Assembly: GCA_018648805.1 (NCBI GenBank)
Contig: JABGQM010000005.1
Location: 49,433-113,432, forward strand
DNA: 64,000 nucleotides
Source: Verrucomicrobiota bacterium
GTDB lineage: Bacteria; Verrucomicrobiota; Kiritimatiellia; UBA8416; JABMPJ01
Direction: 5' to 3'
This document shows, piece by piece, positions 35,139 to 53,058 of the stretch (position 1 is its first letter; each line of letters begins with the position of its first letter). Position numbers and translations under genes: made by a program. The notes under the pieces are model-generated. The model was not told the DNA's origin. It saw only the letters and a program-made list of their open reading frames with translations, and did no database searches.

Positions 35139-35156
35139 GTGTATCATGGGAGATGG

Positions 35157-35972
35157 ATGATGATATGTACGGATGATTTTGTGTTTGTTCACTTTCCCAA
35201 GACGGGAGGAACCTTTGTGGCCGATGTGCTGCAGCGTGTTCTGTCGCAGACGGGGCGGCGCTACGAGGAGGAGGAGATGCACGCCCGTGCTACCGGTATC
35301 CCTTCCGTGCACCAGGGCAAACCCATTCTGGCCTGTGTGCGCAGCCCTTATGACCTGAAAGTCTCTCAATACCAGTATCGCTGGTGGAAGAGTCGCGAAT
35401 CCAAACCGATCCTGAAAGAGCTTCACAAGCGCTGTCCGGGTTACCGGAACTGGACATTCGAGGAGTACGTCGTGGGGTGGGACCAGTTTGTACCGTTGGC
35501 GTTGAGCAACGCCGCGCGCAATCCGTTTACGCGGACGGTGGGTCAGTACTCTCAGAAGTTCATCGATTTTTTCTTCCGTGCGCCAGATGCATTCTTTGCT
35601 GACCTCACGGAGGAGATGCTCCTGGGGGATCTGGAGCAGGCGATGTTTCCCGTCACCTTCCTTACCACGGAGACGTTGAACGATGGTCTGTGCGATTTTC
35701 TGCTCCGCCATGGGTTCAAGGAGGAAGAGGTGGCATTCATTCGAGACGAGAAGCGGATTCTGCCGCCTGGGGCGGTACGCAGCCGGAACGATCGATGGCA
35801 ACAGCACTACACGCCCGGCCTCAAGGCATACGTCCGCCAGCAGGAGCGGTTGATGTTTAAGCTCTTCCCTGAGTTCGAAGAGCGCACCCCGTCCACGGGA
35901 TCGTCCGGTGTGTCGGATGCCCCCGAACCAACGGATGCCATGCACGGGAACCCGTCGACGGTGGCTTCGTGA
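35157..35972 (+). CDS. Sulfotransferase family protein, tandem paralog of 34407..35138
   Basis: FVFVHFPKTGGTFVADVL and VRSPYDLKVSQYQY. ATG at 35157 is preceded by GGGAGA. The track's GTG at 35139 is an alternative start. Confidence 0.55.
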   Translation: MMICTDDFVFVHFPKTGGTFVADVLQRVLSQTGRRYEEEEMHARATGIPSVHQGKPILACVRSPYDLKVSQYQYRWWKSRESKPILKELHKRCPGYRNWTFEEYVVGWDQFVPLALSNAARNPFTRTVGQYSQKFIDFFFRAPDAFFADLTEEMLLGDLEQAMFPVTFLTTETLNDGLCDFLLRHGFKEEEVAFIRDEKRILPPGAVRSRNDRWQQHYTPGLKAYVRQQERLMFKLFPEFEERTPSTGSSGVSDAPEPTDAMHGNPSTVAS

Positions 35973-37507: not shown

Positions 37508-38302
37508 ATGATGGCGGTCAGGAATAGAACAATGCGCAACTGTATGATACTTGGAGCGGGACGCAGCGGTACCAGCTTGGCGGCGGGATGTCTCGCGTCG
37601 GCCGGTTATCACATGGGTGACGACCTGATTGAACCGTGTGAGACGAATCCGCAAGGGTTCTTTGAATGCCGGCGTATCAATGCTTTGAATGAGGATATCC
37701 TGCGTGCCGTGGATGCACGCGGCGCGCCCCGCTACCTGGGGCTATTCGGCCGTCAGCGGTTGCGGCACGACCAGTACTGGTTGGCCTGTCTCTCGCCGCG
37801 GACCACGTTTCGGCCTGACCCGGCCATCCGGGAGCGTATTCGAGACTGCTTGTCACGACGGCCTTACTGCTTCAAGGATCCCCGTTTCTGCTATACACTA
37901 CCCGTCTGGCAGCCCGAGCTAGGGCGTGCCGCCTTCCTGTGTGTCTTTCGCCATCCGGGCGCCACAGTGCGGAGTACGCTGCGGGAGTGCGAGCGGATGG
38001 ATTACCTGGGTGACGTGCACATGACCGAACGATGGGCCTGGCAGCTCTGGACCTGTATGTACCGTGCGGTCCTGGCCATGCCGGACCGCGACCGCACATG
38101 GCTGTTTGTGCACTACAACCAGATACTGGAGGGGGATGCCTTCTCGCGCGTGGCCGAGCACCTCGATGTGACGATTCAATCGGACTTCGTTAATCCCGCG
38201 TTGAGTCGCACCCCTACGATGCCCATCACCTCTTCCTCCGTGGCGCGGCTCTACGATGCACTGTGTGAACGGGCGGGCTATGACAGGAGTAGAGACAGAT
38301 GA
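37508..38302 (+). CDS. Sulfotransferase family protein (Sulfotransfer_3/Stf0-like), a third sequence family
   Basis: ILGAGRSGTSLAAGCL is a P-loop-like 5'-PSB motif. Size 264 aa. No similarity to the other sulfotransferase families at the motif level. Confidence 0.55.
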   Translation: MMAVRNRTMRNCMILGAGRSGTSLAAGCLASAGYHMGDDLIEPCETNPQGFFECRRINALNEDILRAVDARGAPRYLGLFGRQRLRHDQYWLACLSPRTTFRPDPAIRERIRDCLSRRPYCFKDPRFCYTLPVWQPELGRAAFLCVFRHPGATVRSTLRECERMDYLGDVHMTERWAWQLWTCMYRAVLAMPDRDRTWLFVHYNQILEGDAFSRVAEHLDVTIQSDFVNPALSRTPTMPITSSSVARLYDALCERAGYDRSRDR

Positions 38303-40770
38303 GTGAGACGGATCGAGTTGGGCCTGACCATGAGATGCCGGTCGTCTCTGTGGTGATTCCGTGTTTCAACGCGGCCGCAACCATCTTGGAAACGCTGGAA
38401 AGTGTGACGGCTCAAACGTATGCGTCGTGGGAGGCGGTCATCATCAATGACGGATCGACGGATGATACCACGGCTCTGGTTGAGGGGGTTCAGGCCGGTG
38501 ATGATCGCATTCACCTGATCAACGTGCCTCTGAATGAGGGGTTGTCCTCCGCCCGCAACAGGGCGATTCGTGCGGCGCGAGGGGCGTTCATCAAGTTCCT
38601 GGATGCCGATGACCGGTTGACCCCCGATGCGCTGGGCCTGATGGTCGACCGGGCTCGTGAGCGTCCGGAATGTGCGGGTGTCTATGCGTCCTGGATACAC
38701 TGCTATCCGGACGGACGGCAACGCGCGTGGCCCGTGGCACAGGAGCACGCACTCTCCTTTGAGACGCTGGTGAGTGGCAATCGACTCCATATTCAGGCCG
38801 TCATGCTCCGCAAGACGGTGATTGAGGAGGCCGGCCTGTTCTTTGATGAGGGCTTTGTGGACTATGCACAGGGCGCGGAAGACTGGGATGTGTGGATTCG
38901 TCTCTACCGCTGTGGCTATCGGTTGGCTCGTCTGAATACACCCGTGGCACTCTACCGTGAACGGGCAGACAGCATGAGTCACGATCATCTGTCGCAGTGG
39001 CGCTCGGGGTGTCACACCCTTGATCTTGCCTTTGTGCCTGATGCACGTTGTCCGAAGGCACTGCCCGAGTTCGCGGAGGGGCCTCCGTCGGTGACGAAGA
39101 CGCAGTCGCAGCTGGCATGGAACACTGAACATCTCAAGGGCTGCATCCTCGAGGGGGACGTTGGCGCTGTCGAGGGGCTGATTGAGGCTATCCGTGTGAA
39201 GGCGTTGCCCTTCCCCAGTTCGGTTGAATTGGCGCATGCCATGGTGTTTGCGCTGAAAAGTGAGCCCGAGGGTTTCGCTCGGCTGACAGCAGACTGGCCC
39301 AACCGTTATCGGTGCCTGCTCTGCGCCTTGCGCGCCATCCGCCGCGCCACGATGTCGCCCTTCTATGTGGCCGAGTTCATGGCGGCATGGTTGGCCTGTG
39401 TGCCGCACGACATTGATCCGCGGCCGATGCTCGCCGCCGCCCTCCGCCATGGGGGAGTGTCCTGGCTGCAATACCTTAGGCGCCGAAGCCACTGGCGTGA
39501 GCTGGAACGTAACCTGTGCCGTGAACGTCCGTCCGAACGCCGTGTGGCCATCGTGTGCGACTGGGTACCCTACCCGGTGCGGTCGGGGGATAACAAGCGT
39601 ACCGCCGAGATGATCGACGTGCTGCGGCAGAAGGGGTGGTGTGTCCATCTCGTGCTGACCCGCCCCCTGACCCGCAAGAGCCAGAAACGGCTCTGCCTGA
39701 CACATGCCGATGCCTTGCATGTCTTCTTTGGCGGCAACCTGCTCGGTCACGCCTTTCGGTTTGCCGTACGCAAGGTCGATGGCCTGCTCTTTCATCTCAA
39801 ATTGCCGCCGCTGCGCGACACGGTCAGCCGGTTGCTTGGTCGCCAACGCCACCTCGCGGTCGCCCTGTTCAGCCAGATGCCGACCTACCAGTCCGGGTTC
39901 AAGGAATACCTGGCCAAACTGGCGATCCGTCACGAATGGAATGCGGTCGTCATCAACTACCAGTGGCTCTACCCCTCAATCGAAGCGCTGCCCCCATCCG
40001 TTGTAACCCTCCTCGATACGATCGACCTCCAGCATAAGCGTGTCGAACAGTTCGAATCGCGCGACCTGAACGGCGTGCACGCCATCACACGCGCGGAAGA
40101 AGCGGAAACCATGCGTGGGTTCGATGCCATCCTTGCCATCCAGGAAGAGGAGGCCGGCGAAATACGTCAGATGTGTCCCGGACACGCCGTGATCACCGTC
40201 GGAACCAGCTCCCCGCCGCCGCCGCCACGGGATGTGCCCCTGCGCCCCTATTCACTGTTTTACGTGGGCGGTGCCAATGCGGCCAATATCGATGGCCTGC
40301 GGCACTTCCTGGATCGTTGCTGGCCCCGCATCTGTGCGGCCCGGCCGGATGCCGAGCTGCGCGTCTGTGGGCATGTCTACCAGGCGTTTCTTGGAGAATC
40401 ACGCGATAGGGTCACGTTCCTGGGCCATGTCGATGATGTCGAGCTGGAGTACGCACAGGCGGCTGTGGTGATCAATCCGATCTGGGTCGGCACCGGCCTG
40501 AAGATCAAGACCGTCGAAGCCCTGGCGCGCGCCAAACCGCTGGTCACGACCCAAAAGGGGATTGAGGGGATGTCCGGCAATCCCGACGCGGCATGCCGGG
40601 TTGTCGATGGGGATGAGGCCTTTGTTGATGCCGTCGTGCAACTTGTCGCGACCCCGTCAGCGTGTCGTGACCTGGCCCGGGAAGCGGCGACCTACCGTGA
40701 TCAGTTCTTGTCACCCGATGTGGTATACCGCGAGCTATTCGCCTTTCTTGATGAAAATTCTAGTCGATAA
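38299..40770 (+). CDS. Bifunctional glycosyltransferase: N-terminal GT2 domain plus C-terminal GT4 (group 1) domain (WbdA-like multidomain polymerising GT)
   Basis: GT2 segment VVSVVIPCFNAAATILETLESVTAQTY...IINDGSTDDT...FLDADD. C-terminal GT4-like segment SLFYVGGANAANIDGL...VINPIWVGTGLKIKTVEALARAKPLVTT. Confidence 0.65.
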   Translation: MSETDRVGPDHEMPVVSVVIPCFNAAATILETLESVTAQTYASWEAVIINDGSTDDTTALVEGVQAGDDRIHLINVPLNEGLSSARNRAIRAARGAFIKFLDADDRLTPDALGLMVDRARERPECAGVYASWIHCYPDGRQRAWPVAQEHALSFETLVSGNRLHIQAVMLRKTVIEEAGLFFDEGFVDYAQGAEDWDVWIRLYRCGYRLARLNTPVALYRERADSMSHDHLSQWRSGCHTLDLAFVPDARCPKALPEFAEGPPSVTKTQSQLAWNTEHLKGCILEGDVGAVEGLIEAIRVKALPFPSSVELAHAMVFALKSEPEGFARLTADWPNRYRCLLCALRAIRRATMSPFYVAEFMAAWLACVPHDIDPRPMLAAALRHGGVSWLQYLRRRSHWRELERNLCRERPSERRVAIVCDWVPYPVRSGDNKRTAEMIDVLRQKGWCVHLVLTRPLTRKSQKRLCLTHADALHVFFGGNLLGHAFRFAVRKVDGLLFHLKLPPLRDTVSRLLGRQRHLAVALFSQMPTYQSGFKEYLAKLAIRHEWNAVVINYQWLYPSIEALPPSVVTLLDTIDLQHKRVEQFESRDLNGVHAITRAEEAETMRGFDAILAIQEEEAGEIRQMCPGHAVITVGTSSPPPPPRDVPLRPYSLFYVGGANAANIDGLRHFLDRCWPRICAARPDAELRVCGHVYQAFLGESRDRVTFLGHVDDVELEYAQAAVVINPIWVGTGLKIKTVEALARAKPLVTTQKGIEGMSGNPDAACRVVDGDEAFVDAVVQLVATPSACRDLAREAATYRDQFLSPDVVYRELFAFLDENSSR

Positions 40771-41953
40771 TGGAAACTATCAGCTCGTGAATCTTGGCGA
40801 TATCGCCATGATGGATGTGTTTGTGCAGCGGATCATGGCGATGTTCGGCAATCCCGAGATCATGCTGGTCACGCGCAACCCGGATGCGGCAGCACGTCAG
40901 TTTCCAGGTATAACGCCGGTCGATCCCCATCTCCTGGTGCCTTCTGCCCGGCCCCTGAACCGGTTGGCTCGGTGGCGCCGGAAGGCGGGAGTACGGGTAG
41001 GGGTACCGCGGCCAGCGCCAACGGAAATCCCACTCATTGATGGCGTGGATGCTGTGCTGTTTTCCGGGTGTGGGTTTCTCAATGATCATTTTTCTTTCGG
41101 GGCGGCCATGCGCCTGCGTCGTTTGTTGTACGCCGCGAAGCGGGGCAAGGTTGTGGCCCTGTTTGGACAGGGGGTAGGGCCGGTCAGTGCACCGGCCCTC
41201 AGGCAGGCCATGGCTGCAACATTGCCGCTGGCTGATCTCATCGGCGTCAGGGAGCGGGTGGAAGCGCCGCGTATTCTGCGTGAGGTAGGTGTCGCGCAAG
41301 AGAGGATTGCCGTGGTCGGAGATGATGCCACGGAGCTTGCCTTCAGGCGATGTCGCGAGCACCCGGCAGCGCTCCGTATCGGCGTCGGTGTACGGGCGGC
41401 ACCCTACGCTGGAATCGGTAAGGCCGAAGCGCATCTGCTTGCGGACTCACTCGCGCGGGTGCTGGGCGAGCATGGCGCGCAAGCGGTGCCTATTCCGATC
41501 ACCTTCCAATCAGAATTCTCGGATCGCACGACGCTGCAGCGCCTGCTGGCATGCAGCGTCCCTGGCATGGGGGACATGACCGTGGATCGGATCATTGACG
41601 ACGTCGGTAGCTGTGGTGTTGTGGTCTCCGGCACGTACCATGCTGCCGTTTTTGCCCTGGCCCAGGGCATACCGGTGGTCGGAATCTATGCCAACGACTA
41701 TTACCGGACCAAGTTGCACGGCCTGTTCGATATGTATGGGTGGTCGGAGGAAAACCTGCTGCACGTTCAGCAGGCCGACTTCTCCGGCTTGCTGGCCACG
41801 CGTGTTCGCGATCTGCTGATCCACAAAGACCGCTTCACGACGCCCCTGCGCGATGCCGCCCGGCACCAGATCCACGCCTCGCGGGATAGCTACAGTCGCT
41901 TGGCCGTCTTGTTGGGGGGCGCGCCTCTGCCTCCGTTCCGCAAGGCCGTGTAA
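40751..41953 (+). CDS. Polysaccharide pyruvyl transferase family protein (second copy)
   Basis: ATG at 40751, in frame with the track ORF 40562 and overlapping the upstream gene by 20 nt. N-terminus MKILVDNGNYQLVNLGDIAMM is a typical family start. Confidence 0.6.
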   Translation: MKILVDNGNYQLVNLGDIAMMDVFVQRIMAMFGNPEIMLVTRNPDAAARQFPGITPVDPHLLVPSARPLNRLARWRRKAGVRVGVPRPAPTEIPLIDGVDAVLFSGCGFLNDHFSFGAAMRLRRLLYAAKRGKVVALFGQGVGPVSAPALRQAMAATLPLADLIGVRERVEAPRILREVGVAQERIAVVGDDATELAFRRCREHPAALRIGVGVRAAPYAGIGKAEAHLLADSLARVLGEHGAQAVPIPITFQSEFSDRTTLQRLLACSVPGMGDMTVDRIIDDVGSCGVVVSGTYHAAVFALAQGIPVVGIYANDYYRTKLHGLFDMYGWSEENLLHVQQADFSGLLATRVRDLLIHKDRFTTPLRDAARHQIHASRDSYSRLAVLLGGAPLPPFRKAV

Positions 41954-41957: not shown

Positions 41958-42932
41958 TTACGGTTTGCCGGGCCTACCCGCGGCGGCTATGCGGCCGAGC
42001 ATGGCACGCAGTCGTTGCGGGAAGCCGCGGCCGGGGGGCGACGGGTGCCTGGGCTGTGATGTGCCATCGTCCAGACTCTCCTCGGCCATGCCGACCAGGA
42101 CCGCCATGGCATCCTGGGTCTCGCGGCTGACCTCCTTGCCTCGCAGCCACGCCATGTAGTCGTCGTGTTGCGTGAAGAGCAGGCGCGTGGCCATATCGAT
42201 CACCGCGCGGTTGCGGCGCAGGACCTCCTTCGATATTGTTTGTCCCCAAAATGCGACGCGTGGGCGGGACCCGGCACCATGATGATAGACCAGGTCACCA
42301 TAGATCCCTCCGAGCAGGGGGTGGTAATTGCGTTGGTTGCTGCGCCTGAGCTTGAAGATTGTCTCGCCGTGCTCCTGTGCGGTTCTCGTAAAGAGGGAAA
42401 GCGTGTCAGAGCGCTGCCCATCCTTCATTCCGGGGATGACATCGAGCCGGAGGTTGTAGCCTTCGATGAAATCTGCACGAGCAGCCAGGCAGCTGGCGTG
42501 GAGATAGGGGGCGATGGCCGGCGCCAACTCGTCACGCCACACACCGGCCAGCGCGGCGCCATCATCCAGGGCCGCTGTGAGACGGGGCAGCCAGTCGTGA
42601 TGCACCGGATGCGCGTCGCTGTCCATCACCACAATGGACTGAATGCCATCCGCGCGCGCCATTTCGTAGAGCGTGTGAAGTGGCGTGGCGTGACAGTGCG
42701 CCAGCTCAGCGTTGGCGGGACACTGTGTCAGCGTCACAGTGTCGAGGGGAGCCAGCAGTGCCTTAACCGTGTGGTCGCGCGTGCTGTTGTTCCAGACGTA
42801 GAGATGGTAGCTCCCCGCCACGGTGTGACGGATAATGTTGTTGATGCAAAGCGGAAGCCAGCGTCCCTGCTGTGGATCACGCCCGCCATTGACAATCAGT
42901 ATTCCGGTTGTTTGGGATATCTGACGATTCAT
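41958..42932 (-). CDS. Hypothetical protein, possible nucleotide-sugar-dependent glycosyltransferase
   Basis: ILIVNGGRD...VVMDSDAHP contains a DxD-like motif. The minus-strand ORF is more protein-like than the overlapping plus-strand ORF 42165..42935. Confidence 0.35.
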   Translation of the reverse strand: MNRQISQTTGILIVNGGRDPQQGRWLPLCINNIIRHTVAGSYHLYVWNNSTRDHTVKALLAPLDTVTLTQCPANAELAHCHATPLHTLYEMARADGIQSIVVMDSDAHPVHHDWLPRLTAALDDGAALAGVWRDELAPAIAPYLHASCLAARADFIEGYNLRLDVIPGMKDGQRSDTLSLFTRTAQEHGETIFKLRRSNQRNYHPLLGGIYGDLVYHHGAGSRPRVAFWGQTISKEVLRRNRAVIDMATRLLFTQHDDYMAWLRGKEVSRETQDAMAVLVGMAEESLDDGTSQPRHPSPPGRGFPQRLRAMLGRIAAAGRPGKP

Positions 42933-43690
42933 TAAAGCTTCGCTCCACTATTCGTGCCTTCGACGGGCGGATCCACCACGCTCTCTTCGACTGTGGGGCC
43001 GTCGCCCATCGTCTCCTCAATCTGCTTGCCCTTGGGCGGCAGCACTCCCTCTGAGACCAGTTGGTCATCCATGGCCGGTGTCAGGGGGATCGGAAGGGGA
43101 GCCTCCCCGCGGCGCAGCCGTTCCATCTGTGTTTCGCGCCGCTTGTCCTCGCTACTCTTGGCCGCTTCCTGTCTGGCTTCCATGGCGTCGCGCTTACGCT
43201 GTACCGCCTCGCGCCGCTGGCGCAGCCGCTGGGCAAACGAAAGGGCCAGGGGGGACTTATCCTTGTCGGGGGCCATCGGGTCCAGAACCGAATCTTCGGG
43301 GCCCATCGACAGCCACTGTGTGTGGACGCCCTTGCGTATCAAGGCGCGGGCCTGCGCATAGTCGGCCTCCAGCAACTCGATGCCGTTTTCGCTTTCTCCC
43401 AAGCCGATGAGATACGATGTCGGGGGTTTGGTCTGGTTATCTACCAGGCCGACACAGAGCTTCTCCCCATCCGACGTGATGGCACACATACGATAGTGCT
43501 TGAAGGCCTCGCGTGCCGCAACGTCCTCGTCCGCTGGTTGGGGCGCCACCTCCCTGACGACGGCAGCGAAGGGCCGCCGCTGCAGAATGACGTCATAGCG
43601 TTCGAACGGGAGAGGCCGTCGCGAGTTGTTGCCCGCCGCGGTGGCGGCAAGAACCAGCCACAAAATACACGATGTACTTCTCGTTCTCAT
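42932..43690 (-). CDS. Secreted hypothetical protein with a charged, coiled-coil-like C-terminal half
   Basis: Start chosen at MRTRSTSCILWLVLAATAAG (signal peptide). C-terminal region is rich in R/E/Q (RQRREAVQRKRDAMEARQEAAK). Confidence 0.4.
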   Translation of the reverse strand: MRTRSTSCILWLVLAATAAGNNSRRPLPFERYDVILQRRPFAAVVREVAPQPADEDVAAREAFKHYRMCAITSDGEKLCVGLVDNQTKPPTSYLIGLGESENGIELLEADYAQARALIRKGVHTQWLSMGPEDSVLDPMAPDKDKSPLALSFAQRLRQRREAVQRKRDAMEARQEAAKSSEDKRRETQMERLRRGEAPLPIPLTPAMDDQLVSEGVLPPKGKQIEETMGDGPTVEESVVDPPVEGTNSGAKL

Positions 43691-43845
43691 CTCTTGCATT
43701 ATGGGCCAATCCGGCAGCCCCATCAAGGTGTCGTTGTGCCCGTTGTATATCTTGGGCTGGCAATCCCTCGCCTCTCGGGTGATACTTCGCCCGTATTGAA
43801 GTGGGAGTCTGTTGTTGAATCCGTGTGCAGAGCGTATATGAGTAG

Positions 43846-45294
43846 GTGTGTCTCTTGGTCTTCAGTTCACTAGTCTTTCTTCTTCTGTTCCTCCCCGCCT
43901 TCCTTTTGCTGTACTATGCCTGTCCCTCCCGCTGGCGCAATATGGTGGCCCTTGCCGGAAGCATGGTGTTCTATGCTTGGGGCGCCCCTCGCTTCATTCT
44001 TGTGCTGTTGGGGTCCTGTCTACTGGACTATCTCTGTGCACGGAAAATAGAGAGTGCGCCCCACCGCACACGCCGCCTGATTATCCTGGCGGTGGTGTTC
44101 AACGTTCTGGTCCTGGTATTCTTTAAATATGCCAACTTCTTTGTGGCTCAGCTCGACTCCCTGCTTGGCGCCGCGGCGCATGGCGGGGCGATTCCCTGGA
44201 AGCCGATCGCGCTGCCCATCGGAATCTCGTTTTTCACGTTTCAGAAGATTAGTTATCTGATTGACGTCTACAGAGGGCGCGTCGAACCGGCCCGGTCCTA
44301 CCGTGACTACGTGCTGTATGTGAGCCTCTTCCCGCAACTCATTGCCGGTCCCATCGTGCGCTATCACGACGTGGCGGATCAGATCCGGTCGCGGATCTGT
44401 TCATCCGCCATGATTTCGGACGGGTTTCGTCGCTTTACTATCGGGCTGGCTAAGAAGGTCCTGATCGCCAACCATGTCGGCGAAGTGGCCGATACCATGT
44501 TTAACGGGCCTCCTCTCCAGATGTCATGTGTGCAGGCCTGGGTGGGGCTGCTCTGCTACAGCTTTCAGATATACTTCGATTTCTCGGGATATTCGGATAT
44601 GGCTATCGGCTTGGGGCGCTTGCTGGGCTTCAAGTTTCTCGAGAATTTCAACCGTCCCTATATGGCCGCGAGTTTCACTGACTTCTGGCGCCGCTGGCAC
44701 ATCTCGTTGTCAAACTGGATGCGGGAGTATCTTTATATCCCGCTTGGGGGCAATCGCGTGTCGCACCTGCTCCAAGTCAGGAACCTTTGGATCGTGTTTC
44801 TGGTCTCAGGATTCTGGCATGGCGCCAGTTGGAACTTTATTGCATGGGGGGCGTATCACGGGTTCTTCCTCTCACTCGAGCGGATAACGTTTGTGCGTCG
44901 AGTCCATGACGCCCTGCCGCGCTTGGTACGCACGTTGGGCACTTTTGTCCTGGTCTCGATCGGCTGGTGTTTCTTCCGTGCCGAGGACCTCTCCGGGGCG
45001 TGGGCCTTCCTCATGCGGCTTTTTGCTTGCGGCAATACGGGGCAGGGCTTGTATCCCACTCGTCTGCTCTACTATATTGTCTCGCCACGTATTGCGGTGG
45101 CATTCGTGGCCGCCTGCCTGCTCAGTTTCTGGCCCGCTCGCGCGACAAAGCTTGACCTGGAGTGCTCCGGGGGTGCCCAGTGGGGCCTCGCTAGGCTTGT
45201 CGGCGCCAACCTGTTTACGATCGTGCTTCTGGCTTTCTCGCTAGGGGCTTTGGCTACCCAGGCGTTTAACCCGTTTATATACTTCAGGTTTTAG
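43846..45294 (+). CDS. MBOAT family membrane-bound O-acyltransferase (AlgI/DltB-like), copy 1
   Basis: FFTFQKISYLIDVYRG, YFDFSGYSDMAIGLGRLLGF, and FWRRWHISLSNWMREYLYIPLGGNR with the conserved His. The start may be the TTG/GTG a few codons in (MVFSSLVFLL). Confidence 0.75.
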   Translation: MCLLVFSSLVFLLLFLPAFLLLYYACPSRWRNMVALAGSMVFYAWGAPRFILVLLGSCLLDYLCARKIESAPHRTRRLIILAVVFNVLVLVFFKYANFFVAQLDSLLGAAAHGGAIPWKPIALPIGISFFTFQKISYLIDVYRGRVEPARSYRDYVLYVSLFPQLIAGPIVRYHDVADQIRSRICSSAMISDGFRRFTIGLAKKVLIANHVGEVADTMFNGPPLQMSCVQAWVGLLCYSFQIYFDFSGYSDMAIGLGRLLGFKFLENFNRPYMAASFTDFWRRWHISLSNWMREYLYIPLGGNRVSHLLQVRNLWIVFLVSGFWHGASWNFIAWGAYHGFFLSLERITFVRRVHDALPRLVRTLGTFVLVSIGWCFFRAEDLSGAWAFLMRLFACGNTGQGLYPTRLLYYIVSPRIAVAFVAACLLSFWPARATKLDLECSGGAQWGLARLVGANLFTIVLLAFSLGALATQAFNPFIYFRF

Positions 45295-45414
45295 ATGAGA
45301 CGCATGCTGCAACTTCTACCCCTGATGCTCTACATGGCTGTTGCCGGAACGATCGCGTTGCAGGGAAATCATGCGTTCGTGGCCCGACAACGTCTGTATG
45401 GAGAGCCTAATTAG
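45295..45414 (+). pseudogene. 5' fragment (39 codons) of an AlgJ/AlgX/DltD-like partner gene, cut by an IS insertion
   Basis: Starts directly after the MBOAT stop, the same arrangement as copy 2 at 50775. MRRMLQLLPLMLYMAVAGTIALQGNHAFVARQRLYGEP is homologous to the copy-2 N-terminus MRRFLQLGPIMVYAAVVASVAIQQYTRRVELHPLDGEP. The frame then runs into the IS and stops. Confidence 0.7.
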
Positions 45415-47299
45415 AGCCCATCTGAAAAGGGTTTCGGACCGGGGTTCTGAGTTCAAAGTTCACGGTTCAAGGTTGCCTCCGGGCGTGACAAGCACCCCCC
45501 TTGAGCATTTTTCGGATGCCGTGCCTCAATGACGCGTGATTTCACCATTTTTTGAGACAGCTCGTCCATGCTGTTCCCTCCACTCCGTACGAATCGGCCA
45601 TTCAGGCCGCTTTATCCAAAGCCTCCCGTCGTCGCTTCCTCATCAGGATGATGCGGCAGCAGTTGTAGGCCAGCACCTTTTCCATCAACTCCGACCGAAC
45701 CGCCTCTATACCCCGGCGACCCAATTCGCCGAATTCAAAGCCGTCCTTTATCGTGAACATCAGAGACTCGACCGCCGAGCGGTCCCGCCGAGCTCCGCGA
45801 TATGTCTCGCTTTCCCACTCATTGAGGCCGGTCAACTTCTTGCCTTTGGCCCCGCTGATGCTGATATCCTCTACGCCCATGTCCAGCACTTCATCGCGCC
45901 CCTTTGCTGAAGCATATCCATCGTCAGTACTGACCAGTGCGGCCGTCACTCCCGTGCGCTTGATGGACTCACGGATTGCCGGCACCAGTTCAATAGAGTC
46001 AGCCGCGTTCCCCTCCGGAACGATCAGGCTGGTGACAAAACCGTTTGCGCTACGAACCAGTTGTGGCCTATATCCGATAACCGGCAAGCGGCTGCCCTTC
46101 TTGATATAGGCAGCCGATCCGTCCGACAGGCTCAGGACCTTCTCCGTCGAGGGAAGCTTCTTGTCGTGAAACACTCGGTCATTGGCGTAGTCGATAACTC
46201 TGTTTCCATCGGCGAGGTCAGCTTTGACCTGATCCAACACTCGCTGTAGAAGCACGCGGCGACTGGGCGGGAGCGTCTCTATCAACAGTTCCTGCTCAAG
46301 GCGGTTGAGTTCCGTTGTCAACGCGTTCGCCGCCTTGCGTCCAAGTCTGAGCAATCCCCGATAACGTTTCTTCAATTTGACGATGGAATTCGCCTTGCCC
46401 GCTACCAGGCAAATCTGAAACACCAGCTTGTCCATCTCTTCGAGCCAGCGAGCAACCCAGCCTTGCCGAAAATTCTCGAACCCGAATACATTCAGTTTCT
46501 GCCCCAGACGATTCGCCCGCATCAGCAGCCCCGTAAGGATCTTCGCATCGGTGGGCCAACTGCTGTTGGCCTTCACCGAGGTACTGTCGATCGTCAGTTT
46601 CAAGAAGTCATCCAGATCTTCTTTGAGAACAAACTTGATCTGTTCATCGAATATCACGTTCAACGTCTTGGCGCTCACCAGATTTATGTTTTCCAGAATC
46701 GTGGTTACGCCCGGCATCGTCAGATCACGGTTATCAAGATAAGCGTATAAGCTCATCGACTCGCGCAGAAAGCGCCTCGATGTCTTTGACGCCAACGAGC
46801 CACCCAGAAATCCGCGGATCATCACAAACAGATAAACCAGCTCCGCCGACATACGTGGCCGCCCCGTGCCTAGCTCCAATTGATCAGCCAGGAGCTCCGC
46901 GTCCGCCACATGAAGGTCGGGTAGATCCAATGTCGTGATCTCAAAGAACTTCCGATCCTCGATTCGAAGCTTCTTCTTGGCGCGTGCATTGGCATCCAGG
47001 TCTTTCTCGATTTCCTCAATGATTTTCGGTGCGAATCGGGACAACGCGTCCACTTCGTCGAGATAATCACGAAAGTCGGTGTCTGGAACCGGCAAAATCA
47101 GGTTGTAGATAGGGGCGGCTTCTGCTAGCTTCTGCTGTGTCGCACATGTTGGCATGCTCAACTCCTTGAGTAGTGTTAAGTTGTTGAACACTAGCATGTT
47201 GCGACACATTCTTGCAAGCCTGAAATCGGATATTGTCAACTTTTTCTTTGCGGTCCTTGCGTTCTTTCGCGGTGAATAAAGACCTTCTCAGATAACGTC
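45414..47299 (-). mobile_element. Insertion sequence (~1.89 kb, IS5/IS1182-superfamily-like) with a TAATTA target-site duplication and imperfect terminal inverted repeats
   Basis: Direct repeat ctaatta/taatta at 45407-45413 and 47299-47305. Left end gagcccatctgaaaagg versus right-end reverse complement gacgttatctgagaagg match at 12/17 positions. Interior GC is lower than the flanks. Removing the element plus one TSD copy restores the interrupted reading frame. Confidence 0.65.
45602..47239 (-). CDS. DDE transposase (IS1182/IS5-like)
   Basis: 545-aa ORF fills the IS. C-terminal RRDRSAVESLMFTIKDGFEFGELGRRGIEAVRSELMEKVLAYNCCRI resembles the conserved C-terminal block of IS5/IS1182-type DDE transposases. 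Confidence 0.6.
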   Translation of the reverse strand: MTISDFRLARMCRNMLVFNNLTLLKELSMPTCATQQKLAEAAPIYNLILPVPDTDFRDYLDEVDALSRFAPKIIEEIEKDLDANARAKKKLRIEDRKFFEITTLDLPDLHVADAELLADQLELGTGRPRMSAELVYLFVMIRGFLGGSLASKTSRRFLRESMSLYAYLDNRDLTMPGVTTILENINLVSAKTLNVIFDEQIKFVLKEDLDDFLKLTIDSTSVKANSSWPTDAKILTGLLMRANRLGQKLNVFGFENFRQGWVARWLEEMDKLVFQICLVAGKANSIVKLKKRYRGLLRLGRKAANALTTELNRLEQELLIETLPPSRRVLLQRVLDQVKADLADGNRVIDYANDRVFHDKKLPSTEKVLSLSDGSAAYIKKGSRLPVIGYRPQLVRSANGFVTSLIVPEGNAADSIELVPAIRESIKRTGVTAALVSTDDGYASAKGRDEVLDMGVEDISISGAKGKKLTGLNEWESETYRGARRDRSAVESLMFTIKDGFEFGELGRRGIEAVRSELMEKVLAYNCCRIILMRKRRREALDKAA

Positions 47300-47348
47300 T
47301 AATTATGCCAAGATCCCTCGCCCCACCGGCAGTGTCACACGGTGGTGG

Positions 47349-48392
47349 ATGGGCACATTCCAGGCCGATTTCGGCCAGTGGTATGCACGGGCATTCGGGT
47401 TTCGTCCGCGGTTGATACGCTGCTACAACGAGGTGATGTACAGGGCGCTTCGCGAATCCGCAGAAACGAAGCGGCAGAAACGGTTCGTGGGTCGTGACGG
47501 GTGGCTCTATTCGTGGGACTATATTGAGCATCTCTGCTTCCCGCGGGCCCTTGAGCAGGGGCTGTTGTCGCATCGTGTCGCTACGCTGGCGAAGGCCCGG
47601 GATATTCTTGCCCAAGAGGGCGTTGCACTCGTTGTGGCTGTGGCTCCCAGCAAAGCCAACGTGCATGCCGATATGCTACCTGCACGTTTCCGTCGCCTTG
47701 CACCGCCCCCCTCCGAATGCTACCAGAGCATGATTAACATGTTTGAAGAGAGCGAAATCCCCTATGTTGATTTCGACGCCCAGTTCATTCGTCATCGGAA
47801 GGAAGACCGTGATTTCATGCCATTTCCGTCGACCGGCATTCACTGGAACTATGTTGTCGCGGGAGATGCGCTGGAGCAGATTATGGGTATGGCCGAGCAG
47901 CAACTCGGTTTTCCTATAAAGCGTAGTGTGCCGAGAGGGGTGATCCAGCGAGAGAGCATTGCCTCCGACCGCGACTTGCTGGATATGCTCAATATCGCCA
48001 CAACTGAGCGCTTCGTCCTGCCGTCACCCTACCCCCGCTACGAGAAATGCGCACCTGAAGGGGCACAAGAGGTGAAGATGTTCTTCGTTGGCGACAGTTT
48101 TGCGAGCCAGTTGATCCGAATTATTGCCGATCAGAGAATGTGTCCGCAACCTACCTTTTGGAGTTACTTCTGCGACGAGAAGGAGGTCGGCTCAACGTAT
48201 AGACGTGCCTTCCGCACATCCCGCATTGATAAGCCCGCAATTGACTGGGATGAGGTCATCGCGGAGCATGATATCATCGTTATTGAGTTCAACGTGGTTT
48301 TCTGCTGGAATCAGCAGGAACACGGGTTCGGGTGGGGGTTTGCTGATAGGCTTGTTGCCGCTATGGAGAGATCCTGCGAGGAGGAACACTGA
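47349..48392 (+). CDS. AlgJ/AlgX/DltD-like (SGNH-like) O-acyltransferase partner, copy 1, 3' portion: N-terminally truncated by the IS insertion and probably inactive
   Basis: Homologous throughout to 50775..52019 (GIHWNYV vs GVHWNHV; KMFFVGDSFASQLIRIIADQ vs RVLLVGDSFAGQIVRIMADQ). Homology extends upstream of the ATG to the IS right end. The signal-anchor segment is left on the other side of the IS. Confidence 0.6.
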   Translation: MGTFQADFGQWYARAFGFRPRLIRCYNEVMYRALRESAETKRQKRFVGRDGWLYSWDYIEHLCFPRALEQGLLSHRVATLAKARDILAQEGVALVVAVAPSKANVHADMLPARFRRLAPPPSECYQSMINMFEESEIPYVDFDAQFIRHRKEDRDFMPFPSTGIHWNYVVAGDALEQIMGMAEQQLGFPIKRSVPRGVIQRESIASDRDLLDMLNIATTERFVLPSPYPRYEKCAPEGAQEVKMFFVGDSFASQLIRIIADQRMCPQPTFWSYFCDEKEVGSTYRRAFRTSRIDKPAIDWDEVIAEHDIIVIEFNVVFCWNQQEHGFGWGFADRLVAAMERSCEEEH

Positions 48393-48396
48393 ACGC

Positions 48397-49170
48397 ATGA
48401 AACTGTTTGTCCAGGAACTGCTGCTCAAGACCTATGCCCTGATCGTACGCACTGGCGTGCTCGAGACTCGGGCTGGCCGCCGGCTCTTCGCGGGGGCTTA
48501 TAACCTCTACAAACTCCTGCTTGAGGCGTGTGAGATACGGTTCTTGCGTGCCTACGTGAAGCCCGGTGAGGTCGTTGTGGATGTTGGCGCCAACGTCGGG
48601 TTCTTCACGCGGCGTTTTGCCCAGTGGGTCAGTGATGGCGGGTTCGTCATTGCGATTGAGCCCGAGGAAACCAACTTCCGGAATCTGCTGCGCAATCTGG
48701 ATCGGTATCATCTTGCGGCCGCCGTCAGGCCGTTCCAGGGCGTTGCGGCTGAAGCGCCCGGCACGCTCAAGCTCGAGATCAATCCGATCCACCCGGCCGA
48801 CCACAAGATCGGTGCCGAAGGCGTCGATGTGACCGCCTACACGGTTGACGGCCTGGTTCGGCAGGAGGGTGTCAGCCGCGTCAGCCTGATGAAAATCGAT
48901 GTGCAAGGCGCCGAAGAACGTGTCCTGCGCGGCGCCGGCGAGATGATCGCGCGTGATCACCCCGTCATCTTCATCGAGATGGATGACACCGGGCTGCGCA
49001 AGATGGACTCCAGCGCCCAACGCGTGATCGATCTGCTCACAGAAGCCAACTACGAGATCCGCCACTTCAGCAAGGCCGGTAAACCCGAGCTGATCTCAAT
49101 CGAGACGGCACTCGGCCTCTGCGCCGATGGCCGCTATACCGACCTGCTGTTTGTGCCTGTTGTTGCGTAG
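48397..49170 (+). CDS. FkbM family methyltransferase
   Basis: ATG at 48397 with GAGGAG upstream. VVDVGANVGFFTRRFA (SAM motif I) and GFVIAIEPEETNFRNL are typical FkbM-family features. Confidence 0.65.
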   Translation: MKLFVQELLLKTYALIVRTGVLETRAGRRLFAGAYNLYKLLLEACEIRFLRAYVKPGEVVVDVGANVGFFTRRFAQWVSDGGFVIAIEPEETNFRNLLRNLDRYHLAAAVRPFQGVAAEAPGTLKLEINPIHPADHKIGAEGVDVTAYTVDGLVRQEGVSRVSLMKIDVQGAEERVLRGAGEMIARDHPVIFIEMDDTGLRKMDSSAQRVIDLLTEANYEIRHFSKAGKPELISIETALGLCADGRYTDLLFVPVVA

Positions 49171-49337
49171 CCCTCTGGGGCGAATAGGCGCGCCAGGAGC
49201 GTGCAGGAGTAGGGCTGCTGGAGTAGAGGCCTATAGCGTAATGTGGCTCTCGCATCCAGGTTTGCTTCCCGTGATCTTATCATTTACTGTCAGTTGGTTC
49301 ATTCATTTCAACGGCGTCTCTTCTGGGTGGGATTCGA

Positions 49338-50774
49338 TTGGTCTTTAGTTCTCTACTCTTTCTGTTGGTGTTCCTTCCCGTCTTTCTTGGGATTTACTAC
49401 GCCAGCCCCAGGTCCTGGCGCAATGCCGTAGCGGTAGCAGGCAGTCTGCTCTTCTACGCGTGGGGTGCTCCGCGATTCATAGTGGCCCTGCTGGGCTCCT
49501 GCCTGGTTGACTATGTCTGTACACGCAAGATGGGATCCGACCCCCAACGCACGCGTGCTCGTATTGTTCTTGCGATTGCCTTCAATGTGAGCGTTCTCGT
49601 CTTCTTTAAATACTCGAACTTCATGGTGCAGCAGTGCAATGGGCTCCTTGGCTCGATATCATCTGGTGGTGTGATTCCCTGGAAGACCATCGCGCTGCCC
49701 ATCGGGATCTCTTTCTTCACATTCCAGAAGATCAGCTATCTGGTGGATGTGCGGCGAGAGCGCATGGAGCCGGCCCGCACCTTTCTGGATTACCTGCTCT
49801 ATGTCTGTCTGTTTCCTCAACTGATAGCAGGACCCATCGTGCGGTACCACGATGTGGCCCGTCAGATCACGAGTCGTGTTCACTCCACACTGCTGGTCTC
49901 TGATGGGTTCCGCCGGTTCGTGATCGGGCTGGCCAAGAAAGTGCTGATTGCCAACCATGTGGGGCTGATTGCTGACGCGACGTTCAACGGATCGCCCAGT
50001 CATCTGTCCTGTGGCCAGGCGTGGATCGGGGTCATCGCCTATAGCTTTCAGATCTACTTTGACTTCTCTGGTTACTCCGACATGGCTATCGGTTTGGGTC
50101 GGCTGATGGGGTTTCGGTTTCTCGAGAACTTCAATAGGCCTTACCTCGCGATCGGTTTTACCGATTTCTGGCGTCGATGGCATATCTCGCTTTCCAACTG
50201 GATGCGGGAGTATCTGTATCTACCCCTCGGGGGAAATCGCGTATCACACTTTGTGCAGATTCGGAATCTCTGGATTGTGTTTCTGGTGTCTGGACTCTGG
50301 CATGGCGCCAGTTGGAATTTTGTGGCGTGGGGTGCCTATCATGGTCTCTTCCTCTCCTTGGAAAAGGGGCGTAGGGTACAATCGCTTCTCACGGTTCTGC
50401 CCGCCTGGGTTCGCAGGTCTGTGACGTTCCTGCTGATATCCATTGGATGGTGTTTCTTTCGTGCCGGTACGTTCGAGGGGGCTCTGGCAATGATCTCACG
50501 GTTGTTCACCTTAGGTCCGGCTACAGCGGCGATCGTTCCCATACGAAGCTTGGCGTATTTGCTGAGCCCTAGAATCGCAGTGGCCCTGCTGGTCGCCGCC
50601 ATACTCAGTTTTTGGCCGGAATCCGGGCGTAGCCATCGGAAGGTGGTGCCGGGTTCTGGGGTGTGGACAGTGGACCATCTGTTCTCTGCCGCCGGGACGA
50701 TCGTGCTGTTGCTGGCCTGTGTCGGGGCTCTGACGGTCCAAGATTTTAACCCCTTCATCTACTTCAGGTTCTAG
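49338..50774 (+). CDS. MBOAT family membrane-bound O-acyltransferase (AlgI/DltB-like), copy 2
   Basis: Paralog of 43846..45294 with the same motifs: FFTFQKISYLVDVRRE, YFDFSGYSDMAIGLGRLMGF, WRRWHISLSNWMREYLYLPLGGNR. N-terminus MVFSSLLFLLVFLPVFLGIYY. Confidence 0.75.
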   Translation: MVFSSLLFLLVFLPVFLGIYYASPRSWRNAVAVAGSLLFYAWGAPRFIVALLGSCLVDYVCTRKMGSDPQRTRARIVLAIAFNVSVLVFFKYSNFMVQQCNGLLGSISSGGVIPWKTIALPIGISFFTFQKISYLVDVRRERMEPARTFLDYLLYVCLFPQLIAGPIVRYHDVARQITSRVHSTLLVSDGFRRFVIGLAKKVLIANHVGLIADATFNGSPSHLSCGQAWIGVIAYSFQIYFDFSGYSDMAIGLGRLMGFRFLENFNRPYLAIGFTDFWRRWHISLSNWMREYLYLPLGGNRVSHFVQIRNLWIVFLVSGLWHGASWNFVAWGAYHGLFLSLEKGRRVQSLLTVLPAWVRRSVTFLLISIGWCFFRAGTFEGALAMISRLFTLGPATAAIVPIRSLAYLLSPRIAVALLVAAILSFWPESGRSHRKVVPGSGVWTVDHLFSAAGTIVLLLACVGALTVQDFNPFIYFRF

Positions 50775-52019
50775 ATGCGTCGCTTCCTACAACTGGGCCC
50801 GATCATGGTTTACGCGGCAGTGGTGGCCTCTGTGGCCATTCAGCAGTACACTCGTCGTGTGGAGCTCCATCCGCTCGATGGGGAACCGTTGCCCGAAAAT
50901 ATCCCGGCGCCCGTCTGTGACCTGCGGCATTGGTTTGATGGAACGCTGCAGGCAGAGCTGTCATCCTGGTACCCTAAGATTCTCGGGTTCAGGCCGTTGA
51001 TCATTCGCCTCTACAATGAGGTCTTGTATTCTGCGTTGCATGATGCGAACAGCGGGTCCCGCTCGAAGGTGGTTGTGGGAAGGGATGAAGAACTCTTCAC
51101 ATGGTATTTCGTCTCCCGTAGCATCTACCATGCAACGCTGAACGAGGCGCTCCTCGAAGCGCGCGTGGAGAAGCTGAAGCGAGTACAGAGCATTCTGCAT
51201 GATCGGGGCATTGCCCTTGTGGTGGTGATCACGCCGAGCAAGGCGAGTGTTTACCATGATAAACTCCCGTATCGTTTCTCTCGCGGGTGGACGTCGCAAC
51301 CGCCTCCCCTCTATGCGCGAATGCGCTCGTTACTTGAGGACGCCGGGGTCCGGTACTTGGATTTCGATAGAGAGTTTCTACGCAAACGCACAATGGATGA
51401 CCAGTTTGGGCCTTTCCCGAAGACCGGCGTTCACTGGAACCATGTGTCCGCCGGATATGCGTTGGAGCGTATCTTCAAAGAGGGGGAAGCACAGCTTGGG
51501 GTGGACATTGAGCGCCGTGTTCCCGTGGGAGTGGCCTCGCGCCGCACCATTGATACGGACCGCGACGCTCTGAGTATGCTCAATCTGCTATCAGATTCGC
51601 GGCGGGCCCTGCCGTCTCCGTATCCGCTGTATCGCCCCCATGGAGTTGATGGTGCTTTACGGGCCCGCGTGCTTCTCGTAGGCGATAGTTTTGCGGGGCA
51701 GATTGTCAGGATCATGGCCGATCAGGATATGTGTGACTATGTGACGTACTGGTGGTACTTCCGGTCAGAAGCCACAGTGGGATCCACGGTTACCCCCGCG
51801 TTTGCCCGAAAGCCGATTGCCAAGGATTCCATTGACTGGAACCAGCTGCTGGACGACCACAACCTGGTCGTCATCGAGTTCAACAAGGCCTTTTGCAAGT
51901 CCCAGCAGGTTCAGGGGTTCGGCTGGGGGTTTGCGGATGCGCTTGCCGATGCCTTCCCCGCTCCGTCCGAGACATCGCCCGACGGTATACGGTCTCAAGT
52001 CGATCCCTCACAACCGTAG
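50775..52019 (+). CDS. AlgJ/AlgX/DltD-like (SGNH-like) O-acyltransferase partner, copy 2 (intact, with N-terminal signal anchor)
   Basis: ATG follows immediately after the MBOAT stop. N-terminal hydrophobic segment MVYAAVVASVAIQQY. Motifs GVHWNHVSAGY and LLVGDSFAGQIV. Confidence 0.55.
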   Translation: MRRFLQLGPIMVYAAVVASVAIQQYTRRVELHPLDGEPLPENIPAPVCDLRHWFDGTLQAELSSWYPKILGFRPLIIRLYNEVLYSALHDANSGSRSKVVVGRDEELFTWYFVSRSIYHATLNEALLEARVEKLKRVQSILHDRGIALVVVITPSKASVYHDKLPYRFSRGWTSQPPPLYARMRSLLEDAGVRYLDFDREFLRKRTMDDQFGPFPKTGVHWNHVSAGYALERIFKEGEAQLGVDIERRVPVGVASRRTIDTDRDALSMLNLLSDSRRALPSPYPLYRPHGVDGALRARVLLVGDSFAGQIVRIMADQDMCDYVTYWWYFRSEATVGSTVTPAFARKPIAKDSIDWNQLLDDHNLVVIEFNKAFCKSQQVQGFGWGFADALADAFPAPSETSPDGIRSQVDPSQP

Positions 52020-53058
52020 GGCCGAACTGCTCATGCATGTTTCGGCTTGCCGTGTGTCCGAGCCGCTGCTTCAGGTCTGCGTCATCCAAGAGCCGCGTGA
52101 CGGCCTCAGCCAGAGCGGAGGTGTCCCCCGGAGGCACTAGAAGACCTGTCTGCTCGTGCTGCACGACTTCGGGAATGGCGCCAATGCGCGAGGCGATGAT
52201 GGGCTTGCTGAACGAGGCGGCTACGAATGGGATGCTGCTCTGGCTGGCTTCAAGATAGGGCGCCAGGGCAATCGAACATCGCTCAAACAGCGCCGCGCTC
52301 TCGGCATCCGAGACAAACCGGTTGATCACCTCGATGCGGTCACCCAGTTGCGCTATCGGGGCGGCGTAGGGGGTCAGGTCGCCTTGTCCGGCCAGGATAA
52401 GCTTGGCATCGGGCTGGTGTTCGAGAATATCGGGCATGGCTTCCAGAATCGTGCGGATGCCCTTGTACTCCCGCAGGCGGCCGTACAGGAGAAGGGTGTT
52501 GGGCTCCTCGGCAATGCCCGTACGCCACGGCTCGAAGACATCATGAAAGGCCATGGGTGTCACGCACACGCGCGCCGGTGCCAAGTGCCACTTGGCGAGT
52601 GCCAATTCGCGTAGTTTTTCGCTGTGCACGGTAATGATGCGGCTGTGTTTGAGCAGTGGGGCCAGCTTCATGCGGTCGAACGGACGCGGCTCACCCAGGT
52701 GCGGGTCGATGTCATGAATGGTCGATACCATGGGGTAACGGCGTGCCAGGGCACCCAGGAAAAGCCCATAGAGAATGTGGCCGCTGTTGACGTGAATGAT
52801 ATCGGGCTGCCAGTGGTGAATGTCGCGTACGATACGGTGTACCAGCATGGGTGCCGCCAGGTAGCGCAGCAGTTCACCGAGTGTGGCCCACTGCGGCACA
52901 CCGTAAGTGAAGGATCGACTGGCGCTGGACAAATGCTCGTCTGAAACGCCTCTTGGAAGGAAACATGCGACCTCATGGCGCGGTCGCAAGGCGTGCGCCA
53001 GGCTGCTGGCATAGTGCGCCATTGCACCCACATGTAGACTGAGAATAGCTACCCGCAT
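51880..53058 (-). CDS. Glycosyltransferase family 4 (group 1)
   Basis: MRVAILSLHVGAMAHYASSLAHALRPRHEV and a typical GT4 C-terminal half (...LLYGRLREYKGIRTILEAM...EVINRFVSDAE...). The 3' end overlaps the convergent gene by ~140 nt. Confidence 0.65.
   Translation of the reverse strand: MRVAILSLHVGAMAHYASSLAHALRPRHEVACFLPRGVSDEHLSSASRSFTYGVPQWATLGELLRYLAAPMLVHRIVRDIHHWQPDIIHVNSGHILYGLFLGALARRYPMVSTIHDIDPHLGEPRPFDRMKLAPLLKHSRIITVHSEKLRELALAKWHLAPARVCVTPMAFHDVFEPWRTGIAEEPNTLLLYGRLREYKGIRTILEAMPDILEHQPDAKLILAGQGDLTPYAAPIAQLGDRIEVINRFVSDAESAALFERCSIALAPYLEASQSSIPFVAASFSKPIIASRIGAIPEVVQHEQTGLLVPPGDTSALAEAVTRLLDDADLKQRLGHTASRNMHEQFGPTVVRDRLETVYRRAMSRTERGRHRQAHPQTPSRTPEPAGTCKRPC

Follow-up and report, generated by a model that had tools for sequence, protein, structure and literature searches.

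Two paralogous AlgI/AlgJ-like gene cassettes, one interrupted by an insertion sequence, in a glycan locus of a probably uncultured Verrucomicrobiota bacterium

Layout and products of the two cassettes

The DNA under study is a stretch of 64,000 nucleotides from contig JABGQM010000005.1 of a Verrucomicrobiota bacterium, referred to below as the window. It carries two gene pairs on the forward strand, each consisting of a gene for a membrane-bound O-acyltransferase (MBOAT) plus a gene for an SGNH hydrolase-like partner protein, with the gene of an FkbM-family methyltransferase between them. The two pairs very probably represent paralogous O-acyltransferase cassettes of the AlgI–AlgJ or PatA–PatB type, which operate by a PatA/PatB-like mechanism and descend from an old duplication of the whole unit, the first cassette having since been inactivated by an insertion sequence (IS).

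The first MBOAT gene occupies positions 43855..45294 and encodes 479 aa. It is followed by the partner 1 gene, which the IS divides into a 5' fragment (45295..45413), whose 39 codons translate into an N-terminal membrane anchor, and a 3' part (47306..48392) with the AlgJ/AlgX-like SGNH-like domain. The methyltransferase gene (48397..49170; 257 aa) begins 4 nt past the stop codon of partner 1. The second cassette comprises MBOAT copy 2 (49338..50774; 478 aa, TTG start) and the intact partner 2 gene (50775..52019; 414 aa). A convergent gene for a GT4 glycosyltransferase with Pfam GT4/GT1 domains (51880..53058, reverse strand) bounds the cassette region and lies outside the duplication. In both copies, as well as in an orthologous cassette on a metagenomic contig (L005; ENA ERZ23499087), the MBOAT stop codon and the partner start codon abut in the same junction, TAGATG. 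The open reading frame (ORF) coordinates and the matches to PF03062, PF16822 and TIGR01444 agree with a first-pass annotation of the stretch, made from the sequence alone, which had described two MBOAT and SGNH-like cassettes around an FkbM gene and a stop-ATG abutment in each. The FkbM-family protein scores 94.1 bits against TIGR01444 (cut-off 37.7) and 70.7 bits against PF05050 (cut-off 22.7), and is probably a sugar O-methyltransferase.

Against PF03062, for which the cut-off is 27, copy 1 of the MBOAT reaches 116.5 bits and copy 2 reaches 108.9, and the two share 67% protein identity over 461 aa (E = 0). The earliest possible start of copy 1 is an in-frame GTG at 43846, and TTG at 43855 is the next candidate. 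The latter is probably the actual start, because the N-terminus of the family reads M-V-F-S-S; a TTG start is also present in copy 2 and in the L005 orthologue. In a 20-sequence alignment that holds both copies, all columns invariant in the family are kept in both proteins, including H282 in WRRWHISL, H322 in SG[FL]WHGASW and Y475 (MBOAT residue numbers follow copy 2, the first sequence of the family alignment). As judged from the WHG motif rather than from a direct alignment with PatA, H322 would be the equivalent of His315 in PatA and His336 in DltB. Both proteins terminate in F-I-Y-F-R-F, which has the form of the FxYxxF acyl-shuttle hexapeptide, and the C-terminal sequence NPFIYFRF, common to both, is found in 114 of 120 MBOAT homologues. 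The shuttle was recently defined biochemically for PatA; it is near-invariant across a very large MBOAT clade and is not specific to the window.

The only NCBIfam model matched by the two MBOATs is that of DltB (TIGR04091), with 162.3 and 157.2 bits, both below the cut-off of 375. The match spans residues 10–346 of copy 1 and 7–341 of copy 2 in proteins of 478–482 aa, and about 135 further C-terminal residues lie beyond it. DltB is likewise the only bacterial sequence in the PDB matched by these proteins (6bug, E = 3e-26), and it is, to our knowledge, the only bacterial MBOAT whose structure has been solved. On the evidence of their sequences, both MBOATs are assigned to the bacterial AlgI/PatA type with a fused acyl shuttle.

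The partner proteins match PF16822, the SGNH hydrolase-like domain of the acetyltransferase AlgX, with 60.1 bits for partner 2 and 59.2 bits for the remainder of partner 1 (cut-off 26.5), and no other Pfam family at E <= 0.01. They are about 46–47% identical to each other (E = 2e-112). Their family is large: 16,943 cluster representatives pass E <= 1e-3 in a profile search, and 2,368 pass E <= 1e-30. The AlphaFold2 model of partner 2 (mean pLDDT 91.5, pTM 0.88) displays an N-terminal transmembrane helix comprising residues 2–26. A Foldseek search with this model returned AlgJ (4o8v, E = 8e-11), AlgX (4knc, E = 2e-7) and PatB1 of Bacillus cereus (5v8d, E = 6e-6), each with a probability of 1.00; significant fold matches in the PDB were limited to these three proteins, including an entry of the AlgKX complex, and all three are acetyltransferases that work with MBOATs. 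The model thus predicts a circularly permuted SGNH-like fold in which H220 precedes S305. Motif 1 of the AlgJ signature, defined as three hydrophobic residues followed by P-x-K (PMC9487903), is present as VVVITPSK in partner 2 and as VVAVAPSK in partner 1. One family alignment (A1) has K156 and P154 of this motif as invariant residues, and in a second (A2) the conservation of K156 is 90% or higher. S305, within VGDSFA, is invariant across 119 sequences and is the presumed catalytic nucleophile of block I.

Age and origin of the duplication

The nucleotide sequences of the two copies are 65% identical for the MBOAT genes and 54% for the partner genes. Synonymous differences are saturated (pS 0.71–0.74), and the dN/dS ratios amount to 0.13 and 0.18, which indicates that the duplication is old and that both copies have long been under purifying selection. 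The first-pass annotation had drawn the same conclusion on age from nucleotide-level divergence, and the pairwise alignment and dN/dS values bear it out.

The relationships of the copies were analyzed by a search with MBOAT copy 2 over 5.8 billion proteins and by neighbour joining of the 60 best matches with 100 bootstraps. Only three sequences exceed 55% identity to copy 2, namely copy 2 itself (P0001), copy 1 (P0003) and, at 66%, P0002, the metagenomic orthologue encoded on L005; the next relatives stand at 54–55% or below. P0002 shares 75% identity with copy 1. In the tree, the three proteins form an exclusive clade in which copy 1 and P0002 are sisters and copy 2 branches outside them, each grouping being recovered in 100 of 100 bootstraps. 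This rejects the view that the two cassettes were acquired independently from distant sources. The order found for the MBOATs recurs among the partners, with 55% identity between partner 1 and the L005 partner, 49% between partner 2 and the L005 partner, and 46% between the two partners of the window, which implies that the cassette evolved as a unit. The nearest relative of copy 1 is accordingly P0002 and not copy 2 (75% versus 67%); the condition set in the first-pass annotation for its own refutation, two MBOATs that are not each other's closest homologues, thus has a mixed outcome, as all three proteins belong to one narrow, exclusive clade.

The arrangement on L005 bears on where the duplication took place. 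There, the partner of the copy-1 type directly adjoins a convergent GT4 gene, with neither an FkbM gene nor a second cassette between them. This GT4 gene is orthologous to the one at 51880–53058 of the window (tblastx E = 2e-10), where the adjacent slot is held by copy 2. Because of this layout a simple in-situ tandem duplication is not demonstrated. The tandem duplication proposed in the first-pass annotation thus holds as far as two old paralogues that diverged as a unit are concerned, and its in-situ origin is unproven. Two histories both remain: either the duplication predates the split between the two organisms and the L005 lineage lost the FkbM gene and cassette 2, or these two elements were inserted from a close relative.

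The second history, in which the FkbM gene and cassette 2 came from a close donor or a genomic paralogue and were placed between partner 1 and the GT4 gene, so that the tandem order would be secondary, is a serious though less probable alternative to the duplication before the split. It accounts for the direct contact between the copy-1-type cassette and the orthologous GT4 gene on L005, and for the sister grouping of copy 1 with the L005 protein. It is also consistent with a comparison of both genes in segments of 40 residues, almost all of which place L005 nearer to copy 1 than to copy 2; this comparison revealed no recombinant 3' end composed of copy 1 and copy 2, of the kind that a deletion through unequal crossing-over would leave. 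Beyond the coding start, the upstream regions of copy 1, copy 2 and L005 display no similarity. In addition, no relic of the GT4 3' end, as expected from a simple tandem duplication that spans the overlap of the GT4 and partner genes, was found after partner 1. Against an insertion stands the distribution of the family, since relatives above 55% identity among the 5.8 billion proteins are confined to a narrow lineage to which the donor must then belong, and a donor from the same lineage is hard to distinguish from an old duplication followed by a deletion in the L005 lineage. Moreover, a second cassette may lie upstream on L005, which is just 2.9 kb long and too short to decide between loss and insertion.

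Within the cassettes the partner diverged much faster than the MBOAT (46% versus 67% identity), a difference that fits cassettes specialised for different acceptor positions or residues.

Small differences were also observed at the 3' end of the second cassette. The GT4 gene and the partner 2 gene overlap by 140 nt (51880–52019), and the part of the GT4 protein encoded inside the overlap is a non-conserved C-terminal tail of 34 aa beyond a conserved LETVY; the corresponding overlap on L005 is just ~42 nt long. The C-terminus of partner 2 is 13 aa longer than those of partner 1 and the L005 partner.

Insertion sequence in the first partner gene

The partner 1 gene is cut after codon 39 by an element of 1885 bp, which is inserted in the reverse orientation at 45414..47298. 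Its termini, at 45414 and 47298, are imperfect inverted repeats (..ATCTGAAAAGG / CCTTCTCAGAT..), and it is flanked by a 7-bp target-site duplication, the direct repeat CTAATTA, at 45407..45413 on the left and 47299..47305 on the right. The element encodes a DDE transposase on the reverse strand (45602–47197 or, with the longer ORF, 47239) that matches PF01609 (DDE_Tnp_1). The best NCBIfam model is that of ISNCY transposases (NF033593), whose cut-off of 325 bits is not reached by the score of 266.5, and the IS1182 and IS5 models score far lower. By its size and repeat length the element may be ISDol1-like.

A stop codon arises at the IS junction (45412–45414). Excision of the element together with one repeat restores an uninterrupted partner 1 ORF of 401 codons. 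Across the junction, the restored protein reads GEPNYAKIP where the intact 401-aa orthologue on L005 has GEPDYARQS, an alignment which indicates that the boundaries of the element are correctly placed. The disruption noticed in the first reading of the sequence is thereby confirmed by the transposase, the inverted ends, the direct repeat and the restored frame. Since partner 1 shows no further decay, the insertion is considered recent.

The annotated remainder of partner 1 is an ORF of 347 aa that starts at ATG 47349, and it lacks the membrane anchor because this is encoded by the 5' fragment ahead of the IS. The element is present as a single copy within the window, and the exact transposase is recorded on the 173-kb source contig alone. 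Three further JGI samples each yielded a contig that matches the window at 100% identity over its entire length; two of these contigs (L003 and L004) cover the left junction and one (L001) the right junction, and each of the three ends inside the IS. The 347-aa fragment is also present in three Verrucomicrobia proteins from metagenome-assembled genomes (MAGs) at NCBI, which gives 7 contigs in all. The exact restored partner 1 of 401 aa was not found in a collection of 15 billion proteins, and the IS-disrupted allele is the only one seen.

Only cassette 2 is therefore intact today, and cassette 1 is freshly inactivated, with its MBOAT orphaned. The two O-acyltransferase systems of the first-pass annotation do not describe the present state of the locus, as partner 1 is cut after codon 39, just behind its membrane anchor. 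Continued function of cassette 1, either through pairing of MBOAT1 with partner 2 or through expression of the partner 1 remainder from an IS promoter, is unlikely. In its favor, the MBOAT1 gene is undamaged, the remainder retains every catalytic motif behind an ATG in the right frame, and a weak promoter-like site faces outward inside the IS end (47038–47067). The remainder, however, is devoid of the N-terminal anchor or signal, so that the periplasmic face would be out of its reach, the promoter-like sites number 3 against a shuffled mean of 4.0, and cross-pairing is uncertain with partners that are only 46% identical. A search for promoters and terminators within the region likewise gave counts no higher than the shuffled expectation.

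Inactivation of surface-glycan decoration genes by IS elements is common. The recent loss of one of two O-acylation modules by this means corresponds to a common route of surface-polysaccharide variation.

Predicted mechanism, acyl donor and surrounding locus

In PatA, the tyrosine of the shuttle is auto-acetylated from acetyl-CoA in a reaction that depends on the invariant MBOAT histidine (PMC12148441). In the Dlt system, DltC is the donor and the shuttle motif resides on DltX, a microprotein of its own, whereas MBOATs with a fused FxYxxF motif are described as working without DltX and without a carrier protein (PMC12148441). Because the catalytic histidine and the C-terminal FxYxxF are kept in the window proteins, their donor is likely an acyl-CoA, most likely acetyl-CoA, and not a Dlt-like carrier. 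Motifs, fold, gene coupling and insertion are results of the analysis, and the following steps are modelled on PatA/PatB and AlgI/AlgJ. On the cytoplasmic side, the MBOAT would accept an acyl group, in all probability the acetyl of acetyl-CoA, and His322 of the WHG motif would transfer it to Tyr475 in the C-terminal F-I-Y-F-R-F of the same protein on the outward side of the membrane. The partner, held by its single N-terminal helix, would receive the acyl group on Ser305 (GDS), with His220 (G-x-H-W) as the base, and would attach it as an ester to a hydroxyl group on the exported glycan. The two genes of each pair are coupled by their TAG-ATG junction. The cassette would have been duplicated as a unit before the split from the L005 organism, both copies being kept by purifying selection, and the ISNCY-like element would later have entered partner 1 after codon 39 with no other damage.

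Besides the layout of L005 and the possible pairing of MBOAT1 with partner 2, the active site of the partners counts against this reading. Motif 2 of AlgJ, (R/K)TDTHW, is altered in both proteins: partner 2 reads KTGVHW and partner 1 reads STGIHW, with the histidine and tryptophan kept, and G218 of partner 2 aligns with D190 of AlgJ, the block V aspartate. A glycine occupies this position in 138 of the 159 family members with a single x-x-H-W match, and aspartate as the sole match was found in 0. The replacement is thus a trait of the whole partner subfamily and no peculiarity of this locus. With the block V aspartate missing, the catalytic apparatus would differ in detail from those of the solved enzymes, and the partners are for this reason classed just as an AlgX/AlgJ-like subfamily with variant block V. 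As the aspartate is replaced by glycine throughout the family, its members may use a Ser-His dyad or a relocated acid.

Acidic residues of the partner that are at least 90% conserved, and hence candidate replacements, are D196, D231, D262, D264 and D304. A partner subfamily without the canonical block V aspartate could merit structural follow-up, although it is not specific to the window.

A comparison with known systems places the cassettes closest to AlgI/AlgJ (AlgX) of Pseudomonas in gene organization and fold. In both, an MBOAT gene is followed by the gene of a membrane-anchored, permuted SGNH-like PF16822 protein with the PxK motif, the block V H-W and a later serine, and AlgJ (4o8v) is the best match of the partner in sequence as well as in fold. 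The AlgI/AlgJ cassette also behaves as a mobile or duplicable unit; a paper by Franklin et al. from 2004 reportedly carries the lateral transfer of an algI/algJ cassette in its title. By contrast, the window has no alginate genes, no AlgF and no AlgX-type carbohydrate-binding module, and its cassettes are surrounded by genes for sulfo-, pyruvyl- and methyltransferases. The partners read TGVHW and TGIHW where AlgJ reads TDTHW, a subfamily-wide difference, and partner 2 is only 18–19% identical to AlgJ in the structural alignment.

PatA/PatB of Campylobacter and Neisseria share with the window an MBOAT with the invariant histidine and the C-terminal FxYxxF, and a separate SGNH-type transferase. 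PatB, however, is an SGNH protein of canonical order, unlike the permuted AlgX/AlgJ-type partners, and the context in the window is a secreted or surface polysaccharide locus and not peptidoglycan metabolism. In Bacillus anthracis and B. cereus, two pairs, PatA1/PatB1 and PatA2/PatB2, act on one secondary cell-wall polysaccharide (PMC7759979). They resemble the window cassettes in being two paralogous pairs in one organism, and a search by structure with partner 2 lists PatB1 near the top. Bacillus, however, is Gram-positive, PatB1 belongs to the DHHW family (TDHHW, KDS), and the DHHW-family motifs TDHHW, KDS and DxRY were not found in either partner. DltB/DltD, with DltA, DltC and DltX, likewise combine an MBOAT with an SGNH-type partner, and a gene with adenylation and carrier-protein domains is present in the wider locus of the window. 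The window MBOATs nevertheless fall more than 200 bits short of the DltB equivalog cut-off, their shuttle is fused to the MBOAT and not carried by a DltX, and their partners are AlgJ-like and not DltD-like.

The gene in question encodes a stand-alone protein with adenylation (A), carrier-protein (PCP) and thioesterase (TE) domains (55290–57926, reverse strand). It is the sole A-PCP gene, lies 3.3 kb off, is convergent to the cassettes and heads a convergent GT2-GT4-GT4 operon. A Dlt-like system, in which this A-PCP-TE protein activates a carboxylic acid and feeds it to an MBOAT, so that the glycan bears a non-acetyl ester, is very improbable. The proximity within the same glycan locus speaks for it, as do the DltB matches of the MBOATs in NCBIfam (162 bits) and the PDB (6bug). 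A third point in its favor is the A domain, which reads LHTPGS where, in the A4 motif of amino-acid-activating A domains, FDxS is usual; we assume that LHTPGS occupies the A4 position, in a domain that may lack the usual aspartate, which would point away from an alpha-amino acid as the substrate. The DltB score is, however, far under the 375-bit cut-off and the match ends near residue 341–346, and the C-terminal FxYxxF marks the acyl-CoA-using class that works without DltX or DltC. No adenylating-enzyme homologue was detected within 10 kb of the MBOAT in any of 81 related loci (ORFs of at least 90 aa, smaller carrier proteins being outside the screen). The A-PCP-TE gene is neither co-located nor co-oriented nor co-occurring with this MBOAT clade. 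The order of the A-PCP, GT2 and first GT4 genes in its operon recurs on the Verrucomicrobia MAG contig L087, which stops there and encodes an A-PCP protein of 60% identity, and more distant A-PCP-TE homologues (43%) occur in non-glycan contexts without MBOATs. The link between the A-PCP-TE gene and the ester substituents suggested in the first-pass annotation is thus not upheld, and its proposal of more than one such substituent stands as speculation. Least probable of all is a hybrid of Dlt donor and PatA-type shuttle, in which one cassette moves a non-acetyl group supplied by the A-PCP-TE protein, and/or an aspartate-less catalysis of the partner family. The thioesterase domain has a cysteine where a serine is usual in its nucleophile motif (GRCLGG), and a cysteine is also present in 28 of the 63 homologues with a recognisable motif.

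The 81 related loci were collected by a scan of genome contigs with the MBOAT alignment and comprise 80 genome loci from many phyla (40–51% identity) plus L005. Together with the window they make 82 regions, 68 of which hold a partner match. One MBOAT with one partner is the arrangement at 55 loci; two or more MBOATs occur at 6 of the 81, and a single MBOAT with at least two partners at 7 more. The largest arrays were found in a Bacteroidales MAG (L081, CAMIWN010000011.1), where 15.8 kb hold 4 MBOATs together with 6 partners, and in Bacteroidia RUG12856 (L055), with 3 MBOATs and 5 partners; at another locus (L012) four consecutive partner genes come after a single MBOAT gene. Since multi-cassette arrays recur, the Bacillus pairs are documented and IS inactivation is common, the feature of the window is ordinary and of a known kind.

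The cassettes lie inside a locus for glycan biosynthesis and decoration that extends from about 15.6 to 58 kb of the window and encodes, besides several GT2 and GT4 enzymes, the ATPase of an ABC transporter, two pyruvyl transferases, two sulfotransferases, methyltransferases and an FrhB-like protein. The cluster is rich in decorating functions and probably belongs to an uncultured marine lineage of the Verrucomicrobiota. Its significance lies mostly in annotation, with acyl-, methyl-, pyruvyl- and sulfotransferases assembled in one glycan cluster.

The ABC ATPase is encoded at 33129–34388, a GT2-GT4 fusion at 38299–40770 and the FrhB-like Fe-S protein at 28092–29531 on the reverse strand. No Pfam or NCBIfam match was obtained for the ORFs at 41958–42932 and 42932–43726 (both reverse strand), 29411–32254 and 34407–37492 (forward strand), and three ORFs of 876–926 aa (167–2947, 12877–15612 and 20186–22816) have no Pfam match. 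The first two of the unmatched ORFs lie just upstream of MBOAT1 and are divergent to it. A giant ORF of 2803 aa is located at 4362–12773 on the forward strand. Several of the decorating enzymes in the locus occur twice; the pyruvyl transferases are encoded at 17808–18995 (reverse strand) and 40562–41953 (forward strand), and the sulfotransferases at 27293–27997 (reverse strand) and 37508–38302 (forward strand).

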